Of a DNA stretch of 61,068 nt, positions 30,283 to 38,729 are shown piece after piece; the first letter of the stretch is position 1; each line of letters opens with the position of its first letter. The DNA comes from a virus. Taxonomy: Duplodnaviria; Caudoviricetes. The stretch is from positions 1 to 61,068 of IMG/VR virus record IMGVR_UViG_3300017966_000001. One strand, given 5' to 3'. Under the pieces are notes generated by a model. It saw nothing but the letters and a program-made list of their open reading frames with translations, did not search any database and was not told the DNA's origin. The position numbers were made by a program, and so were the translations under genes.

Positions 30283-30493
30283 GTTTGTCTCCTTGTAAAG
30301 GCACGAGCGGTGCTGTTTTGCATTTAGGACATGTGGTTTCACCATCGAAACAATTGGTGAGGATATACCAGTCACCGGAATCAAAAACAATACCGCACAA
30401 CGACTCTTCCCCATCCATTGATCCGTGAACTAGGCCATACGGGATACCATCATTCCGGACGCGTGATACAGTGTATAGCGATCGACGCATCAA
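30245..30493 (-). CDS. Hypothetical zinc-binding protein
   Basis: VH...SLCG...TCPKC. Confidence 0.55.
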   Translation of the reverse strand: MMRRSLYTVSRVRNDGIPYGLVHGSMDGEESLCGIVFDSGDWYILTNCFDGETTCPKCKTAPLVPLQGDKHGPKNQTDSSMA

Positions 30494-31152
30494 ACCTCCA
30501 AATAAGCGAACTCTTTGAACACATTAGGACATTTGCGCCATAGTTCAATAGCTATTTTTTCAGCAAGGAAGCGATGATCAATCTGTGCCGTTTTATGCGT
30601 CCTGGAACGCAGATACGTCAACCAAGCGGAAAAATTTGCAGTGACGACAAACTTGGTTGCAACAGACTCAGGCAAAATGAACCTGGCGGTTTCGGGTTTG
30701 TTGCCTTCGGTGAGCAGGCGAAAATAAGCTTTTTCTGCAATCGCGCACGAATTGAGCCAGGCATCAAAACCAATTCCGTTAGCTTGCAAATCACACGGTT
30801 TGATGACAGCTATCTCACCCTCGAACCGCTCACTTCCTAGGTTGCAATACCTGAGGGATTGCTGCGTGTGGGCGTGACAGACGACATCACCCTTCCAAAA
30901 TCGGTGTGTCCTGATTTGCGCGGCGATTGCTACAGATGTTTCTATGAGGAATGACGCATTTGCGTGTTCAAGCACCGATTTATGCGCTTCTCCGCCACTG
31001 GGAGGTGTCAGTAAATTTTCGATAAATCGCACATAGCTCGTGCTTGTGATCCTGCCAACTGTTGCCGTGCAGATTCGACCTACTCGCTCGATAAGTTTTT
31101 CCGCGTTGGGTGTGATGGCCATCAGTTCGGCACGCTGGTTTTTGACGATCAT
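30490..31152 (-). CDS. thyX: Flavin-dependent thymidylate synthase (divergent)
   Basis: HKSVLEH, QIRTHR, QQSLRY, ARFILP, NFSAW..YL..R. Confidence 0.85.
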   Translation of the reverse strand: MIVKNQRAELMAITPNAEKLIERVGRICTATVGRITSTSYVRFIENLLTPPSGGEAHKSVLEHANASFLIETSVAIAAQIRTHRFWKGDVVCHAHTQQSLRYCNLGSERFEGEIAVIKPCDLQANGIGFDAWLNSCAIAEKAYFRLLTEGNKPETARFILPESVATKFVVTANFSAWLTYLRSRTHKTAQIDHRFLAEKIAIELWRKCPNVFKEFAYLEV

Positions 31153-32132: not shown

Positions 32133-32438
32133 TTAGAGTGCCTCCACATAAAGGGTTTCTTCGGTTTCGTCCAGGAAGCGTGAGCGTTCGACAGCGCGTC
32201 TAGCTTTCAGGGGTGAGATTTCGATACACTCGATTCCGATTCGGTGGCCTGGGAGCCAGGTGATGGTGTCGTCTTCCATGACGCTCTGCATGATCGTGGC
32301 TTTGATTTCGACAAGACCTATCTGAGGCTCCATCCGGCGCAGCTCGTATGCGAGCCACTCGATCGTATCGGTCATTTTGGTCAAGTGGAGATTCCGGCCA
32401 TGGACGTGACTTGTTACTTTGAGTGTCAGGGTTCGCAT
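32133..32438 (-). CDS. Hypothetical protein
   Basis: AAGGAGG RBS directly after the promoter at 32459-32486. Confidence 0.65.
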   Translation of the reverse strand: MRTLTLKVTSHVHGRNLHLTKMTDTIEWLAYELRRMEPQIGLVEIKATIMQSVMEDDTITWLPGHRIGIECIEISPLKARRAVERSRFLDETEETLYVEAL

Positions 32439-32458
32439 CTGCCCCCTCCTTGACCCAA

Positions 32459-32486
32459 AGGATAGCCCAGGATTTGAAACCGTCAA
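32459..32486 (-). promoter_or_regulatory. Sigma70-type promoter
   Basis: TTGACG-N16-TATCCT. Confidence 0.7.
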
Positions 32487-33037
32487 TAGGTCTTTTCAAA
32501 AAAGTTTGAGCCCCTGGTTGGAGGGGCTCAATTGAAGTGCTCTCTTGGTTTAGTAACAACTACCCCAACGCACAGACAAGGCATCGGCGACACCCCATCG
32601 ATAGCAATGGCTCTTCAGGTGCATGTCATTCGATATTCGTCCGTCCACGGCATGTTTCCAGCCGAGGTTGTATAGCTCGAACAGTTTTAACAGCTCGGTT
32701 CGTGTGAGTGGATTCATAATGTCACAACCTTAGACGATGCAGGATTATGATAAACGCAACAACTCGTTCAAACCAATTCGCGGACCTATCACTCACAAGA
32801 TATCGTATCGCTAGAGATATGGATAGATAGGCGGACGCTAGTAATAGGCATTGCAACCATACGGCCACATTACCTCCAAACGTTTTGATGGAACACAGCC
32901 AAACACAACGCGTGATTGGCCCGGCTAATTGCAGAATTGCCTTCCCGTGAAGCAGATCTCGCAAGCAATCGCAATATAGCATTCAGGCAATTGTTTCGGT
33001 GCTCAATTTGGCAGCTCATGTTTACCTCCACGACGTA

Positions 33038-33065
33038 AGGGTAATACCGCTGCGTTAGGTGTCAA
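33038..33065 (-). promoter_or_regulatory. Sigma70-type promoter
   Basis: TTGACA-N16-TACCCT followed by GGAGG and ATG. Confidence 0.55.
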
Positions 33066-33139
33066 GAGTGGAAATTTGAATTGTCGCGTTTTTCTGTGAT
33101 TTTACCTGTTTATGCGACAAAATGTCGTCAAATACAGAG

Positions 33140-33397
33140 TTAGACAGCATCATTCAGGTGTCGAATGATTGCAGTTTTGACTTCGATTTCATCTTCGTAT
33201 TCAAAGGGAATAACAGCCTTGGCACGTCGCAGCAGAGCATCCGACGCCTCAAGCCGATTCTTGTATCGGTTCCTGTCGTGTTCGGCTTTCTCAAGTTCCT
33301 TGGCTAATTCGACTGCCCGACCTTCATATAATTTTGCCTTGAACTTCGCATCATCCAGGGCTTCGCAGGAAACACTCAAGCAATTTTCCAGTGTCAT
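33140..33397 (-). CDS. Coiled-coil hypothetical protein (cassette gene)
   Basis: AGGAG RBS; the stop TAA lies within the GTTAGAC core site at 33139-33145. Confidence 0.7.
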   Translation of the reverse strand: MTLENCLSVSCEALDDAKFKAKLYEGRAVELAKELEKAEHDRNRYKNRLEASDALLRRAKAVIPFEYEDEIEVKTAIIRHLNDAV

Positions 33398-33429
33398 CGT
33401 TTCTCCTGTTTCTCGTTTCATCCTGTGCC

Positions 33430-33492
33430 GTCTAACCACGGCTTCAACACGGACGCGGCCTTCAGCCGCGCCGGTTAAGCCGGGCGTTAGCC
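33430..33492 (+). mobile_element. attC: Integron attC recombination site (63 bp)
   Basis: R'' GTCTAAC, 5-nt spacer, L'' CTT(C)AAC with extra C, GC-rich stem-loop, L' GTTAAG, 6-nt spacer, R' GTTAGCC. Confidence 0.88.
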
Positions 33493-33984
33493 GACCACCA
33501 AGCGATAGGCTTCCTCCCAGAGATGGGCTTCTCCTTCGCGCAGTAATTCCAGAAGAAGTCGCTTCTCTTCCAGATAGACACGCGCAAAATTTGGGTCTCG
33601 CTCAACGATGCTTCGTGTGTTGTCGATAAGGTCAGCTAGCTTAATGGTTTTTGCCTGTGGGCTCGCCTTGGACGTGTGCTCACGGTCCATGGCCTTCCTG
33701 ATGGCTCGTTTGCCATCCGAGGGCTTGGAAACATCGGTCAGCTGTTCCACCAGCGATGCGACCTCAAACCCAAATATTTGCTCGATCTCATCCAGGCTAA
33801 CCCCGCAGTCCTCCACGGTATCATGCAGCCACGCAGCGCAAAGCATTGCCTCTGTGTGCGGCACGCTCCGCACCAGTTCAGCAACGGCGGCGGGATGCGC
33901 GATGTAGGGTTCACCCGTATATTTTCGAGTTTGCCCAATCCGTGTATGGGCAAGGGTAGCAAATTCTTTGGCACGGTGCTCCAT
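33487..33984 (-). CDS. HD-domain (p)ppGpp hydrolase-like protein (Mesh1/SAH type; cassette gene)
   Basis: AH..QTRKYTGEPYIAHP, AWLHDTVEDC, LVEQLTD, IKLADLIDN. Confidence 0.9.
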   Translation of the reverse strand: MEHRAKEFATLAHTRIGQTRKYTGEPYIAHPAAVAELVRSVPHTEAMLCAAWLHDTVEDCGVSLDEIEQIFGFEVASLVEQLTDVSKPSDGKRAIRKAMDREHTSKASPQAKTIKLADLIDNTRSIVERDPNFARVYLEEKRLLLELLREGEAHLWEEAYRLVVG

Positions 33985-34010
33985 AAATCTCCTTGCTGTC
34001 AGCCACGGTC

Positions 34011-34071
34011 GCCTAACCGGTCGTTCGACCTGCGCTCCCTTGCGGTCGCCGGGCCAACTCCAGCGTTAGAT
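34011..34071 (+). mobile_element. attC: Integron attC recombination site (61 bp)
   Basis: R'' GCCTAAC, 5-nt spacer, L'' GTT(C)GACC, L' GGCCAAC, 6-nt spacer, R' GTTAGAT. Confidence 0.85.
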
Positions 34072-34230
34072 TGCTCGTTGAGCATCGGATCGGTCTGCTT
34101 CTTCCACAGCTCTCTTCCAGCGTTCAAGGTATTCCTTAAATCCCTTTCTGTTCTCAGGGTCGCTTATAAGTTCGCCACTGAACACAGAGGCATCAAGGGC
34201 ATCACAGGCTTCGTCATATCGTGGGTGCAT
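34066..34230 (-). CDS. Small acidic hypothetical protein (cassette gene)
   Basis: AAGGAGG RBS; the stop lies within R' of attC 34011-34071. Confidence 0.7.
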   Translation of the reverse strand: MHPRYDEACDALDASVFSGELISDPENRKGFKEYLERWKRAVEEADRSDAQRAI

Positions 34231-34311
34231 GTTTCCTCCTTCGCTGTCAGTTTCGATTTCCACGCCCTCTCCATCGTTTCGGCTTGCGGTTGCGCCTGGT
34301 TAACTCTATCA

Positions 34312-34491
34312 CTAGACCGTATCTCTCCCTGCCATCTGTATGCATATCGAAACAGCTCTTGGAGCGTGGTTTGAATATTTGCAGCACCAGTTGCAGTATC
34401 GGCTCCCATGCAATGGAGTCCCTGGCTTGTGCCCTGCCTCATGATGATACTTACATCCTCGACAATGATCAGGTTTCTTCTGTTTGGGCAT
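34312..34491 (-). CDS. Small Cys/His-rich protein (59 aa, not in ORF track)
   Basis: MPKQKKPDHCRGCKYHH...YCNWCCKY...; ATG immediately follows the attC-like core GTTAGGCG on the minus strand. Confidence 0.6.
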   Translation of the reverse strand: MPKQKKPDHCRGCKYHHEAGHKPGTPLHGSRYCNWCCKYSNHAPRAVSICIQMAGRDTV

Positions 34492-34492
34492 C

Positions 34493-34578
34493 GCCTAACC
34501 TTTCGATTGACTCGGACGCTACCGCCGCTTCGGTTCATTTGCCATTCTGTCTCCTTCCGGCGGCGTCCGAGTTAGCTA
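34493..34578 (+). mobile_element. Truncated/degenerate attC-like site
   Basis: R'' GCCTAAC, 5-nt spacer, long stem TGACTCGGACGC / GCGTCCGAGTTA; no R' at the expected distance. Confidence 0.55.
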
Positions 34579-34760
34579 CAATTACACCCCAAATCCTGAC
34601 TCAAATTCGATATAACTGCACGTGCATTCTCAATCAATACGTGTTGACGATGTAACGCGTGGCACGCCTCTTCTAGCAACCGAAATACTTCAATACCACC
34701 AATTGTTCCTTCTCGCAATTCGAACAAAACTTTAACTGGATCGAAGTTGTCGCGCGTCAT
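34572..34760 (-). CDS. Hypothetical protein
   Basis: ORF MTRDNFDPVKVLFELREG...; start uncertain. Confidence 0.5.
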   Translation of the reverse strand: MTRDNFDPVKVLFELREGTIGGIEVFRLLEEACHALHRQHVLIENARAVISNLSQDLGCNCS

Positions 34761-34774
34761 TTGTTTGTTACACA

Positions 34775-34963
34775 TCAGTTTATATCCAAATCGACCCAAA
34801 CCCGGTTTTCAAGGTCAAGCAGGTCGTAATGGTCATATGACATGAATTCAATGGCTGATTTAGCCTCATCCACAGTGCTGTACGACCCACGGGAGTCACA
34901 GTGACCGCCCATCGCATAATGTTGATCATAACCAAACAACAGAAATCGCTTGTATGCGCTCAT
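34775..34963 (-). CDS. Small conserved phage protein
   Basis: KRFLLFGYDQHY..GG..D..GSY motif; AAGGAGGT RBS. Confidence 0.7.
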   Translation of the reverse strand: MSAYKRFLLFGYDQHYAMGGHCDSRGSYSTVDEAKSAIEFMSYDHYDLLDLENRVWVDLDIN

Positions 34964-34975
34964 TGCGACACCTCC

Positions 34976-37345
34976 TTAAGCCTTCAGCCCATCAAAATTC
35001 AGCACCTGGAAATACCTACCCTTGCGCTTACAGTAGCGCTTGTTGAGTGTTGCTGCATCAAGCTCTTCAATGATCGAGCTGTCGCAAAGCACTTTTAGGG
35101 CATTGTCCAGTGCGAATTTGACATCCCTACTGGCTTGCTTGTAGCAAATCTTGTTTGCCACTCGCCAGTAAAGATAGGATAAGGGAACCACAGAATCCGT
35201 CAAGACCTCTTTTAACAAACCGTGAGATTTTTGTGATTTCGTGATACACTCGGCATTAACAGACAATGCCTCGAGAATGGCCTTTTTGAGCTCATAGATC
35301 TGCTTGCCTTCGGAGGCATCAGCGCCGACGTCCTTCCGAGCAAACCTAGATAAGACATTCTCCGTCTCCCAGATCACAAGGTCATGTGCCCATTGCCAGA
35401 TCGATGCGGTGATCACGGGTTGCCAGACGTTAACGCCAACTGCGATCAAGCTGGCAATCTTCAGAATTTTGAACTGCGTGCGACCCCATAAGGAAGCAGT
35501 TACCCAATCCTCGGCAGCATTTGCCGCGTTGATTAGATCGTTAGTTTTGCGATCAAACGCTTCGTCCAGAGCTAACGCGTCTACGTCAAGCTCAACTGGA
35601 GTGACTTTGTGCTCGTCATTACGCAATGTGATGGTTTTACCGACGTTCAGAAACCAATCAACCAAGTCGCAGGGTATTGGATATTTTTCCTTGTTGGCCA
35701 GGCTTCGCAATCCCGTGTATTCGAAGATGCTAAACCTAGGCAAAAAACCATCAGTGCACGCCTCGTCTGTTAAATTCTTCCAGAAAGACCCAGGAGCCGA
35801 TTCACAAAGCATGGAAAAAGCAGGTTGAATTGTCGCAGCAACGTTTTTTTCCTTGTCGCTGTAGGTCTGGCCGATCAGGATGTTACCCTTCTCGCCCTTA
35901 CCGTAGAGATCCAGGAACGCCTCAGCCAAGCCACGATATGTCTCGGATGGGTTCTTACCGCCCATGCGGCCCAACTGCTTACCAAACTCGCCAAACAATG
36001 ACACGCAACATGGGTTCTCCGCAAGGTGTCGCATCAATCCGGAGTAGCTGGCCGCTTTTGGACCCAGAAAGTTTGCGATCTTTGGATCACGCTGCCGCAA
36101 AGTAGCAAGCAAATTGCTTACGTTTTTGGTAGTGTCTTCCTTGCCAGTCGCCGGCCCCGCCACCAACACCATATAGATATTGAGCGACGTATCCCAAACA
36201 CTATGGCTCCGCCCAAACACCCCGGAGAATAGACCCAGCGCTGACACAATCGAAATCAACGGGATTGGTCGTTTGGAGTTGCGGTAGAACGCTTTAGCGA
36301 GCTCACCTACTTTGCCCTCTGGCCAGGTTGGCTGCCACTCCAGAGTGTTGCCGGCAGGTGTCTCGATTACAACCGGCTCAGCTGGATCAGACAGGAACGG
36401 ATTGGGTATCGGCTCAACCTCTGGCAGCACAAGATCCATCGCTCGGCTGAACGTCCTGTCGAGATAGTCTTCACGGAAAGCTTTTGGCCTTTGGCCAAGC
36501 TGACTTTGGTGGAACAACCGAATCGTCTGCTCTTTGTTCCGAGAGTGGAATGAGAGCATGTTGAACAAAGCTTGATCATAGGTCGACTGCCCAGAGCCAT
36601 CCCAAGTCTGTGGATACAGGACCTTCAAATCATCAAAGTCCCGCTCAAAGAACGCGGCAAACTTTTCACCGTTGAATCGATGACAGCGTTCCAAAACCTC
36701 ATCATCGTCATACCGAACTTCTTCGGAGATCACTTGAACAGTAGCGTTGTTACTGTTACCAGGCACCTGAAAGTAGTAGGCCTTCATGGCGCTGAGTTTC
36801 TCCTGGATGGCTTCAGGAGACTGCAACAGCACATCGATGACCATATCACCAGTCAAAGCGATAAAGCGCTTGCTGGTATAGAATTCAATCTCTTTAGTGC
36901 GGCGATTAAAGACCTCATTGGTCTTGAGGAAGACGTGCAAACCACGTCCTGATACCGACACCTCGGTGGGGCAATTGAGCCATTTACAGAGCTCCCAGGA
37001 TTGGGTGCAAATCGGGTCATCCATCTCCAGGTGTTTGAGGTCAATGTCCAAGATTGCGTATGGATCGTCCTCAAAAAGCATCAACCCGATGCCATTTGCA
37101 TCAGTATTATATGCACAAGCAAGTGCCGTCTCAAAATCAACGCAGTCCTGCCGACTCTTGGGGTAAGCCGTGAGTCCAGTAAATGGACTCTTGGGCACCT
37201 TGGCGGGGCGAGTCCCATCCTCTGGATTCACCTCCAAGCAATACGGGATAAACTGCTGCAGACTTCGGATTTCCTCAGGCAGGCGCCTGAGAGTTGCAAT
37301 TTGTTGGTCTGTCAAAGGCATATTTAAGACCTCATTGGTGCCCAC
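34976..37345 (-). CDS. Primase-polymerase (AEP / NrS-1-like) fused to a P-loop helicase-like domain
   Basis: KVPKSP, LDIDLKH, EVSVSGRGLHVF, RFIALTG; helical bundle RLFHQSQL..R.K..R.DYL; AGPATGKE. Confidence 0.85.
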   Translation of the reverse strand: MGTNEVLNMPLTDQQIATLRRLPEEIRSLQQFIPYCLEVNPEDGTRPAKVPKSPFTGLTAYPKSRQDCVDFETALACAYNTDANGIGLMLFEDDPYAILDIDLKHLEMDDPICTQSWELCKWLNCPTEVSVSGRGLHVFLKTNEVFNRRTKEIEFYTSKRFIALTGDMVIDVLLQSPEAIQEKLSAMKAYYFQVPGNSNNATVQVISEEVRYDDDEVLERCHRFNGEKFAAFFERDFDDLKVLYPQTWDGSGQSTYDQALFNMLSFHSRNKEQTIRLFHQSQLGQRPKAFREDYLDRTFSRAMDLVLPEVEPIPNPFLSDPAEPVVIETPAGNTLEWQPTWPEGKVGELAKAFYRNSKRPIPLISIVSALGLFSGVFGRSHSVWDTSLNIYMVLVAGPATGKEDTTKNVSNLLATLRQRDPKIANFLGPKAASYSGLMRHLAENPCCVSLFGEFGKQLGRMGGKNPSETYRGLAEAFLDLYGKGEKGNILIGQTYSDKEKNVAATIQPAFSMLCESAPGSFWKNLTDEACTDGFLPRFSIFEYTGLRSLANKEKYPIPCDLVDWFLNVGKTITLRNDEHKVTPVELDVDALALDEAFDRKTNDLINAANAAEDWVTASLWGRTQFKILKIASLIAVGVNVWQPVITASIWQWAHDLVIWETENVLSRFARKDVGADASEGKQIYELKKAILEALSVNAECITKSQKSHGLLKEVLTDSVVPLSYLYWRVANKICYKQASRDVKFALDNALKVLCDSSIIEELDAATLNKRYCKRKGRYFQVLNFDGLKA

Positions 37346-37399
37346 ATAGATATGGAGGCGGACTCTCAGAGTAAGGCCGGGGTCTCAGGGTCGCAAGAT

Positions 37400-38110
37400 G
37401 TCAATTTCTTGACCGATTCTCAATACAAGGTGCAAATCGCATGCAACTCTAATCAAAACACACCATATTCACAATACACAAAATACAAGATTTTTCGATC
37501 AAACTTTATGCGGAGTATGCGCATAATACATCAATACATGAAAATCGTGTTCAGACTGTATGCAGTATTTTATGCAGAAACTCGCATAAAAACACAACAT
37601 TCGATCGCATAAGATAGATACTTTGCATAAACACACCAATTTCAATGGGTTGCTCAATACATTGAATACAAGATTTTTCGTTCAGGCTATATGCAGAAAA
37701 ATATGCAGTTTCTGCATAACCTATGGGTAGAATTTGCCTATAGGGGTGTCATACATGAGCCGCATTTTCATACATACAGCCATTTTGCATTTAAGTGCTT
37801 AAAAATCAATAACTTAACATTATACACCAAAATACAAGATTTCAGTATCATACATGGGGTAGGGGAGGGGGCCTACAGGGGGCCTACAGGGGGAAATACA
37901 CCACCTCCCCTGAGCGATCACTCTGACCCCTTTTAAGTGTATTGTATGTATTATGTAAGTAGTAGTAGTAGTAGTAGTTATGTAATGTATATTATATGTA
38001 TTTTTGTGTATGTTTGTAAGTAGTAGTAATAGTAGTATTTATATAAGTATATATTATTATTTATATTTATATATTTATCTTATTTTTACTTCTTTTTCTA
38101 TTGACATTCT
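37400..38110. other. Putative replication origin / AT-rich non-coding control region
   Basis: AATACAAGATTT(TTCG) at 37482, 37665 and 37831; GGGGGCCTACA tandem; (TAG)n and AT-only tract 37936-38100; next to the primase gene at the strand divergence point. Confidence 0.55.
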
Positions 38111-38559
38111 TCTATTTTGAGACTATTGTTTCGGGCCTTCTATCGAACTGCATATGCGCATATTTTCCAGACTAGCCGCACCGCCGGAATTGATGTAATT
38201 TGTCTGGGTAGCGCTGCGGTCCCCCACCCGTCAGCCAGAGTAGTTGATCCCGAGGCTACTCCTCTCCTGGACGTAACAACCAGTGATGAACCTCGGGTGG
38301 ATTGTGACCGGGAGGCTTTTGGGCTTCCCGGTTTTGTTATCCAGAGAATACCCTTGTGGGAACAAGCACGTTAAATTCGTCCGAATCGGGTTGCGAGCTG
38401 ACTCCAAAAGGCTGGTTGCTCGCGCGAGGTTCGCTTGAGTGGCTCTAGAATGCGTTTGAGTGCATATCGCGATGTCCATGGCCAAACGATAGCCTTAAAT
38501 GATGAGATTGGATCTCAATTAGAAAGGTGTTGACTTCCTGAACAAAAATCCGATCATGG

Positions 38560-38692
38560 ACTCAACAGCGGGAATGATGACAACCCGGCCATAGTTGAAG
38601 TCGATTCCTCATCATCGAAGCTGAACTGAAAGCCTCCTGATAGACCAAGTGTCCGTAGAGGCTTTGCCCCAAGACTATACTTGGGGCTTTTT
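38560..38692 (+). ncRNA. Candidate structured small RNA
   Basis: Follows TTGACT at 38530; three hairpins plus terminator; no plausible ORF. Confidence 0.4.
38666..38692 (+). terminator. Intrinsic terminator
   Basis: GCCCCAAG-actata-CTTGGGGC-TTTTT. Confidence 0.85.
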
Positions 38693-38729
38693 GATTCCAT
38701 AAACCGCTACCACTGACTGGAGTCCACAC

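Follow-up and report, generated by a model that had tools for sequence, protein, structure and literature searches.

Integron cassettes are defined by a fixed polarity of gene to attC recombination site, and it is this polarity that makes them readable by the promoter of the integron platform. What, then, is to be made of an array in which every gene runs against its attC sites? Such an array was proposed by a first-pass annotation of the IMG/VR virus record IMGVR_UViG_3300017966_000001, at positions 33,140 to 34,491, with the suggestion that it belongs to a phage-adapted class of inverted cassettes expressed from a leftward phage operon. Here we analyse the whole record (61,068 bp, with direct terminal repeats and a completeness rating of 100%; hereafter the window) together with attC arrays from other viral contigs and from bacterial genomes, and find the reversed arrangement in the window and in most of the viral arrays sampled. 

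attC sites and genes on opposite strands

Two sites in the window carry the R'', L'', L' and R' boxes of a canonical integron attC. Read on the + strand, site A (33430..33492, 63 nt) consists of GTCTAAC, a 5-nt spacer, CTT[C]AAC and, on the far side of the hairpin, GTTAAG, a 6-nt spacer and GTTAGCC, the bracketed letter being the extra base of L''. Site B (34011..34071, 61 nt) likewise reads GCCTAAC, 5 nt, GTT[C]GAC and then GCCAAC, 6 nt, GTTAGAT. In both sites the spacers are thus asymmetric, 5 nt first and 6 nt second, and L'' has an additional C, the features from which + had originally been chosen as the attC top strand; the best pairing register of each has unpaired central spacers of u1=5 and u2=6 on that strand. 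The outer R''/R' boxes form 6/7 pairs in site A (GTCTAAC/GTTAGCC) and are scored 5.5/7 in site B (GCCTAAC/GTTAGAT). The bottom strand of an attC site is defined by extrahelical bases in the L'' arm, with a G at position 16, a T at 23 or 24 and sometimes a third base at 20; a 6-bp stem separates the first from the last of these, and spacers are 5-6 nt long (Nivina 2016, PMC5027507). Site A fits this layout exactly, its - strand having three extrahelical bases, G16, T20 and T24, at canonical spacing. When both strands were folded, the minimum-energy structure of the - strand of site A had single-base bulges at three places, T, T and G, each of them in the 3' arm, so that the extrahelical G predicted for this strand was indeed found. 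The folding of site A is far from that of shuffled sequence (z -5.7 and -5.0 on the two strands; 0/200 shuffles as good).

Because attC sites are near-palindromic, the strand assignment was tested in two ways, both against a control set of nine plasmid regions with class-1 integrons, in which attC sites had been located by a strand-symmetric search. A register scorer, which scores the canonical pairing register on both strands (maximum 19), placed 16/16 control matches of at least 15.5 on the annotated strand of the cassette genes. Applied to the window, it gave site A 18.0 with + as top strand vs 14.5 for the other strand, and site B 15.0 vs 13.5. As a site finder the scorer proved too permissive (8 real matches vs 0-6 per shuffled window at ≥15.5), and it was kept for strand comparison only. 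The second test used a covariance model, R1, built from 8 of 11 delimited class-1 control attC sites and distinct from the standard model of IntegronFinder; the attC of aadA5 and that of smr, which is interrupted by an insertion sequence (IS), could not be delimited and are absent from the training set. All 18/18 R1 matches in the control loci fell on the gene strand and held-out sites scored 28-41 bits; the held-out dfrA1 site was missed (E up to 1, default filters). With filters off, R1 scored the + strand of the window as top strand at both sites, at 31.4 bits (E 2.7e-6) for B and 29.0 bits (E 1.3e-5) for A; the next-best match in the window reached 10.2 bits, and the - strand at site A 8.1 bits. 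Both site scores lie within the span of the held-out sites. This confirms that A and B are integron attC sites and that + is their top strand; a model score favouring - as top strand, which would have refuted the first-pass annotation, was not obtained.

The genes, by contrast with the canonical arrangement, lie on the other strand. An unbroken series of - strand open reading frames (ORFs) runs through the array, comprising p67, p59, p54, a 165-aa protein and p85. The 165-aa ORF (33487..33984, -), which has AAGGAG 6 nt upstream of its ATG, matches Pfam family HD_4 (PF13328) at 4.3e-19, with 69.2 bits vs a cut-off of 27.2, and phrog_990 at 5.3e-39. It also matches the MESH1/HDDC3 and SpoT/RelA hydrolase domains of the PDB at 1e-15 to 1e-16, and its translation contains a His-Asp motif, WLHDTVED. 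The product is certain as an HD_4 protein and is predicted from these matches to be a small alarmone hydrolase, that is, a Mesh1-like (p)ppGpp hydrolase of RelA/SpoT type. There are 23 relatives of this gene in other IMG/VR viral contigs, at 52-70% identity.

The smaller ORFs were assessed by their homologues and by an amino-acid composition score (described below), on which the HD_4 protein reaches +9.2. The 85-aa p85 (33140..33397, -) has an RBS-like (ribosome-binding site) GGAGAA upstream of its ATG at 33397. No Pfam or PHROG family was matched; a single homologue of equal length and 75% identity is found on a 5.4-kb contig, and composition supports coding (+6.9 vs -10.6 for the overlapping + ORF). 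Records of the identical p85 protein exist for 4 contigs. The 54-aa p54 (34066..34230, -), preceded by GGAGG, scores +2.9 and belongs to no family among the Pfam and PHROG profiles. The Cys/His-rich p59 (59 aa; 34312..34491, -; stop TGA) has three homologues with 62-78% identity; its composition, at -4.9, gives no support. Long + strand ORFs do run across the attC sites, with non-protein-like compositions scoring -5 to -11. The claim that the cassette genes are antisense to their attC sites is thus borne out by the family match of the HD_4 protein and the homologues of p85 and p59.

The stop codons tie these genes to the recombination sites. In 4/5 of the - strand ORFs the stop TAA is complementary to the TTA of a GTTA core, which includes the three cases reported at the outset (33140, 33487 and 34066) and a fourth, at 34572. 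Read along the genes, the repeating unit opens with an attC; a short leader carrying a ribosome-binding site leads into the ORF, which closes in TAA|C, its stop exactly at the G|TTA crossover. These units share with canonical cassettes the attC boxes, the extrahelical bases, the G|TT crossover, a stop codon that often falls inside the core, and compact ORFs lacking promoters of their own. In a canonical cassette, however, the ORF lies on the top strand and is followed by its attC, whereas here every supported ORF occupies the bottom strand, with the attC ahead of the gene and the stop at the R' crossover.

Further core-like sequences mark the two ends of the array. At its start, site C (34493..34577, +; inverted repeat I1) is a degenerate attC-like hairpin made up of GCCTAAC, a 15-bp stem and a GTTAGCT abutting the stem. 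R1 gives it 9.4 bits, from the R boxes alone, and it scores 9.5-12.5 either way in the register test. The reading frame of p59 begins 1 nt past the GTTAGGC core of this site, and p67 (34572..34775, -), the last non-cassette gene of the primase operon, has its stop TAA plus C within the GTTAGC. At the distal end there is a lone GTTAGAC core (33139..33145, +), whose TTA (33140-33142) supplies, on the opposite strand, the stop of p85. No hairpin lies to its left (33050-33145 folds no better than shuffles) and it has no model match. Such a lone-core ending occurs in 7/19 arrays, the window and 6/18 viral arrays examined. Within the 81-nt gap between p59 and p54, a GGTTAAC palindrome (34298-34304) is core-like on both strands, with no hairpin and no model match, and may be the remnant of a lost attC.

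Neither an integron integrase (TIGR02249, 0 matches) nor a tyrosine recombinase of any kind (PF00589, 0 matches) was found in the complete 61-kb genome. With two attC sites 518 nt apart, both on + and in a genome without intI, the array is a cluster of attC sites devoid of an integron integrase (CALIN). It differs from mobile and sedentary chromosomal integrons, and from a complete integron generally, in having no intI, attI or cassette promoter (Pc) beside the array, its left end being the lone core with no recognisable attI, for which no model was built.

Cassette polarity in viral and bacterial arrays

Three samples of attC arrays were scanned. For viral sample 1, both strands were searched with the pattern CTAACN{30,60}GTYGAASNNNNNGTTAGRC, taken from the sites in the window, and 80 of 82 stretches were scanned (L033-L112), yielding 108 model matches in 27/80 stretches. 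Bacterial and archaeal genomes were searched with the same pattern, and the 80 stretches listed, of 120, were scanned; 50/80 had matches (223 in all), of which 220 full-length ones were used. Viral sample 2 (L250-L326) relied on a different L'' motif, CTAACN{30,60}CTTGASCNNNNNGTTAGGC, which returned at least 120 stretches; among 77 new loci scanned, 75 gave matches, 323 in total, and 297 of the 300 listed were used. A cassette was taken as the interval between neighbouring sites, with exact duplicates removed and near-duplicate contigs remaining. attC arrays were common in predicted viral contigs, with up to ~20 sites in one 37-kb contig (L320).

The strand call was validated on the bacterial sample. 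All matches lay on one strand within each of the 32/32 bacterial loci with three or more matches, and where intI was adjacent (7/7 loci) it was divergent from the array, the top strand as called pointing away from it; an eighth (L167) has integrase fragments only, inside the array. For 94 viral sites the register scorer agreed with the model in 89, disagreed in 0 and tied in 5. The bottom strand was on average the more stable, by 0.97 kcal/mol in viral sites, 1.57 in bacterial sites and 2.55 in the class-1 set, compared with a published difference of 2.12 (Nivina, PMC5027507). The extra top-strand base of L'' was C in 80/94 viral sites, and the top strand was pyrimidine-rich. Independent strand features of the viral sites hence resemble those of bacterial and class-1 sites, and the R1 scores of viral sites, which reach 63 bits, equal those of bacterial sites.

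With the strands set, the position of the longest ORF differed sharply between the samples. In bacteria it was sense, i.e. on the attC top strand, in 149 of 164 cassettes (38 loci), antisense in 15 and tied in none. In viral sample 1 it was sense in 15, antisense in 50 and tied in 1 of 66 cassettes from 19 loci (Fisher p 1e-23 for bacterial vs viral sample 1, with cassettes that are not independent). Viral sample 2 gave 82 sense, 123 antisense and 3 ties among 208 unique cassettes, a weaker length bias because long chance ORFs are common in GC-rich DNA. GC periodicity at third codon positions (GC3) was tried as a test of coding strand, failed the bacterial control (25 sense vs 28 antisense) and was dropped. 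A log-odds classifier of amino-acid composition was used in its place, trained on bacterial cassettes only and with bacterial scores obtained by leaving one locus out. It called the 164 bacterial cassettes sense in 121 cases and antisense in 9 (29 unclear, 5 none). The 66 cassettes of viral sample 1 came out sense in 3 and antisense in 51 (11 unclear, 1 none), with an antisense majority in 16/19 loci, and the 208 of sample 2 sense in 9 and antisense in 123 (64 unclear, 12 none), with an antisense majority in 48/53 loci. Taken together, 174 of the 274 viral cassettes are antisense and 12 sense, and antisense cassettes form the majority in 64/72 loci. This points to reversed polarity as the rule in the phage-borne attC arrays sampled, and not a one-off, in support of the class of inverted phage cassettes suggested by the first-pass annotation.

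The viral arrays resemble that of the window in other respects. The stop TAA falls exactly at the crossover in 32/50 viral antisense ORFs, with GCC as the last codon in 23/32; among bacterial sense ORFs, 35/164 stop in R''. The flanks are phage genes: of ten flanking ORFs chosen for a check, 7/10 match portal, head-tail adaptor, large terminase, RecE/exonuclease or replication-initiator families, and these share the strand of the antisense cassette ORFs. None of the five other viral records examined carries IntI, and no IntI1-like match was found among the 80 sample-1 viral loci (L033-L112), in a search that also took in the bacterial loci, sample 2 (L250-L326) being outside it. Cassettes shared between different phages were not found beyond exact duplicates in near-identical contigs and one 187-nt partial match (L046 vs L104/L112), which breaks inside the cassette at a contig end.

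Family matches agree with the strand calls. Among the ORFs of viral sample 1, the 45 sense ORFs scanned matched no Pfam and no PHROG family, while the 59 antisense ORFs matched 23 PHROG families and five Pfam families, namely N6_N4_Mtase, Lar, Acb3, the UPF0020 methyltransferase domain and a primase zinc ribbon. An earlier scan had given Pfam matches for 6/10 of the longest viral antisense ORFs vs 0/10 of the longest sense ORFs. The bacterial picture is the mirror image, with 80 Pfam families among 122 of 155 sense ORFs scanned and five among the 122 antisense ORFs scanned: rve, rve_3 and HTH_21 (IS integrase/HTH), PIN and DUF5701. In viral sample 2, 110/113 antisense ORFs were scanned and matched 63 PHROG families, DNA methyltransferases foremost, together with a queuine tRNA-ribosyltransferase family, RNA ligase and 3'-phosphoadenosine 5'-phosphosulfate (PAPS) reductase. 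Judged by these families, the cargo of the phage cassettes is phage-typical, and much of it is predicted to serve DNA modification and counter-defence.

Some individual cassettes deserve mention. In one viral locus (L085:5483-6340:-) an antisense cassette ending at the crossover encodes a full-length Acb3 (7.6e-70), an inhibitor of the cyclic-oligonucleotide-based anti-phage signalling system (CBASS). In another (L110:2956-4335:+), a 459-aa antisense ORF has a sub-threshold match to a Cas12f1-like TNB domain (25.5 bits vs a cut-off of 26.3) and may be a TnpB-like gene in cassette position. Inverted cassettes in sedentary chromosomal integrons, for example those of toxin-antitoxin systems, carry their own promoters, and the PIN match among the antisense ORFs of the bacterial loci (L115-L194) fits such cassettes.

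attC arrays in phages are already known. Seventeen CALINs have been reported in phages, five of six phage attC sites assayed were recombined by IntI1, and in phage sites the predicted bottom strand was the more recombinogenic of the two (Qi et al. 2023, PMC9892861). Those arrays resemble the present one in having attC sites between small ORFs of virulent phages, no integrase and DNA methyltransferases in the cargo. The available text of Qi et al. 2023 (PMC9892861) calls the arrays typical and makes no mention of gene strand relative to attC strand, the words 'antisense' and 'opposite' having 0 occurrences. We scanned the four phage records named there with R1. In MW202573 there were five matches on -, with every annotated coding sequence (CDS) of the region on +, and in Pseudoalteromonas phage H101 two matches on +, with CDS on -; Polaribacter phage P12002L had no R1 match at E up to 1. 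The reversal is hence present in 2/3 published phage records detected by R1. In the literature searched, phage attC arrays are nowhere described as having reversed polarity; papers beyond that collection may exist. In the arrays described here, the polarity is reversed, and generally so.

Possible origin of the polarity and competing explanations

We consider it probable that the array in the window is a CALIN in the leftward replication and accessory operon of an integrase-less phage, with reverse-polarity cassettes that follow a phage-wide pattern. The coding strand of the genes is the recombinogenic bottom strand of the attC sites, and on this reading the cassette genes would be read from the phage's own promoters. 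Recombination would need a host integron integrase acting in trans. Such an integrase may insert attC-bearing DNA at a stop codon, at TAA|C, whose complement reads G|TT. Insertion at this point would leave the upstream gene whole, and would find there the sole such place in a tightly packed phage operon; it would also make the bottom strand of the inserted DNA continuous with the coding strand. A phage gene flanked by two insertions of this kind would then form, with an attC, an excisable unit that closes in TAA|C, in other words a cassette. A model of this kind would account together for the reversed strand, the position of the stops at the crossover and cargo of phage type. The array in the window begins where p67 closes in TAA|C, and its far end is the lone GTTAGAC core. 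In the E. coli chromosome, integron integrase inserts cassettes at 5'-GWT-3' attG sites, a route into DNA that lacks any att site, with no strand or orientation bias (Loot et al., 10.1101/2022.09.11.507474). Both the lone core at 33139 and the TAA|C that closes p67 have the appearance of such junctions; the use of phage DNA and of stop codons is our inference.

The polarity would also have consequences during replication. The bottom strand would be on the non-template strand of transcription and, if replication runs with the genes, on the lagging-strand template. In bacterial chromosomal integrons the placement of the recombinogenic strand is the opposite. The argument, put forward in the first-pass annotation, that a leftward fork would leave the - (bottom) strand on the lagging-strand template is logically correct; the origin it presupposes, at 37.4-38.1 kb, is a putative one, proposed from AT-richness and repeats. 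Folding and excision of attC sites are favoured on the lagging-strand template (PMC13108822).

A number of observations weigh against this reading. Any mobility of the array in the window is hypothetical. Site B forms a weak hairpin (-8.8 kcal/mol on both strands, z about 0), and its extra bases, C16 and C23 on +, make the second bottom-strand bulge a G where T is usual. Site C is non-canonical: there is no gap between its stem and the right core, the left arm has 12 unpaired nt, the L'/spacer geometry is off and the pattern of extrahelical bases on the L'' arm is absent. The 23 HD homologues in viral contigs have no attC nearby, which indicates that the gene is not usually a cassette. As for the survey, 2/72 viral loci (one per sample) have a sense majority and 75/274 viral cassettes are unclear by composition; phage TJE1, of the published records, has one weak match (22.9 bits) in sense orientation, on the strand of its genes. 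The samples cover two related attC subtypes with GCCTAAC/GTTAG-type cores, the viral status of the contigs is an IMG/VR prediction with a check of the ten chosen flanking ORFs, and cassettes and loci are phylogenetically non-independent, several contigs being near-duplicates.

How far do these points favour other explanations? A piece of a bacterial array, or inverted cassettes such as those of toxin-antitoxin systems with promoters of their own, could have been caught once in the orientation that matches the operon. In those bacterial cassettes, as in the ones described here, the gene runs against the attC top strand, bacterial arrays do contain some antisense ORFs (15/164 by length, 9/164 by composition, including a PIN toxin and an IS), and integrase can insert cassettes at GWT sites anywhere (10.1101/2022.09.11.507474). 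Yet inverted cassettes are a minority of 9-15/164 in bacteria, whereas in phage arrays the reversal is the rule and outside promoters are needed. The polarity recurs in the 64/72 viral loci and the two published phages, the cargo is of phage families, the closest relatives found for the HD gene are in phages, and the cassette genes of the window are compact, promoterless and stopped at the crossover. We regard a single capture as very unlikely. The sites could alternatively be relics that no longer recombine and now serve as intergenic hairpins in mRNA or DNA (processing, stability, pausing), with a polarity that reflects selection on RNA structure or neutral decay. The phage indeed has no integrase, site B is weak and site C decayed, and the sharing of cassettes is limited to duplicate contigs and the 187-nt match. 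Site A, however, retains every attC feature, with 18/19 register pairs and three canonically spaced extrahelical bases; viral sites attain the bit scores of bacterial ones and have G at the L'' bulge in 80/94; and IntI1 recombined five of six phage attC sites (PMC9892861). This explanation, too, is an unlikely one, if less remote than a single capture.

There would be no anomaly at all if the strand were misassigned, with the hosts' integrase using the other strand and the genes conventionally oriented. The near-palindromic nature of attC argues for this, as does the fold of site A, in which the + (top) strand is slightly the more stable (-23.1 vs -21.5 kcal/mol), opposite to the average trend and hence a further point against our assignment. 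The layout of the - strand, with a short leader after the core and a stop inside the core, likewise resembles that of a conventional cassette. Four independent features, namely bulge positions, 5/6 spacers, model score and mean folding energy, nevertheless agree on the strand chosen here, bacteria with the same attC subtype come out conventional (including the 7/7 intI loci), and the bottom strands of phage sites are the more recombinogenic (PMC9892861), assuming that the strand assignment made there matches ours. A misassigned strand therefore appears highly improbable.

Beyond the reverse-polarity CALIN itself, a wider proposal is put forward tentatively, as a possibility that we hold to be rather doubtful: phages may keep an attC pool of their own with mirror polarity, formed at TAA|C by host integrase, loaded with counter-defence and DNA-modification genes and shuffled during infection. 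If true, this would be a second, phage-side cassette pool using the same sites, in which arrays would be recombinationally hot where bacterial arrays are kept cold, and phage and bacterial cassettes would be mutually silent once captured in the other's array. As to how cassettes originate, a systematic reversal in phages would suggest a concrete and testable model, genesis by insertion at stop codons. Small bottom-strand ORFs between attC sites would offer a new route to phage counter-defence genes, and the annotation of phage attC clusters would change for tools that assume co-orientation.

Genome context and expression

Genes of the window run rightward from 0 to 18.5 kb, leftward from 18.5 to 37.3 kb and rightward again from 38.7 kb. 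The cassette array sits in the leftward block, directly downstream of a DNA primase/helicase gene (34976..37345, -; phrog_3022, 4.5e-136) that heads the block, which runs on through the cassettes. Between the two lies a phrog_1411 gene (34775-34963, -), TGATG-coupled to p67. The best protein relatives of the primase/helicase are only 27-32% identical, and a primase pattern scan of viral contigs revealed no close phage relative. Rfam gave 0 matches in the window at gathering thresholds, with no check of whether it includes an attC family. No synteny was observed around the HD homologues save for one ORF of the window (30490-31152, -), matched in 2 loci, L015 and L016, where 31%-identical relatives lie ~1 kb from the HD homologue; by eye, we take this ORF to have the look of a flavin-dependent thymidylate synthase.

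The stretch occurs in four public runs, all peat metagenomes and all as contigs, and two of the DNA runs may be the source of the record; these contigs, which cannot reveal rare excision products, contain no joints, variants or loose ends. As regards expression, sites A, B and C are spanned by contigs from two metatranscriptome libraries (32537-35600 and 32624-35161). Downstream of the cassette block lies a hairpin of terminator type, with a perfect 10-bp stem and a T run (32506..32531, -), and the RNA contigs of both libraries end at 32398-32624, within ~100 nt of it, where DNA contigs continue. The contig ends are a weak hint of a terminator at 32506-32531, the contigs being strandless and an RNA library being able to hold DNA. 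Of the proposal that the cassettes are expressed from the leftward operon, the co-orientation with the primase operon, the TGATG pair and the bridging RNA contigs stand as weak support; the contigs show neither strand nor transcription.

The putative origin discussed above falls in an AT-rich divergent intergenic region (37350-38700), which could be regulatory or an origin of replication. It contains 43-nt repeats 183 nt apart (37472 and 37655, with a third, partial copy at 37828), an exact tandem of AGGGGGCCTAC x2 at 37866-37887 and (TAG)n runs at 37954-38046.

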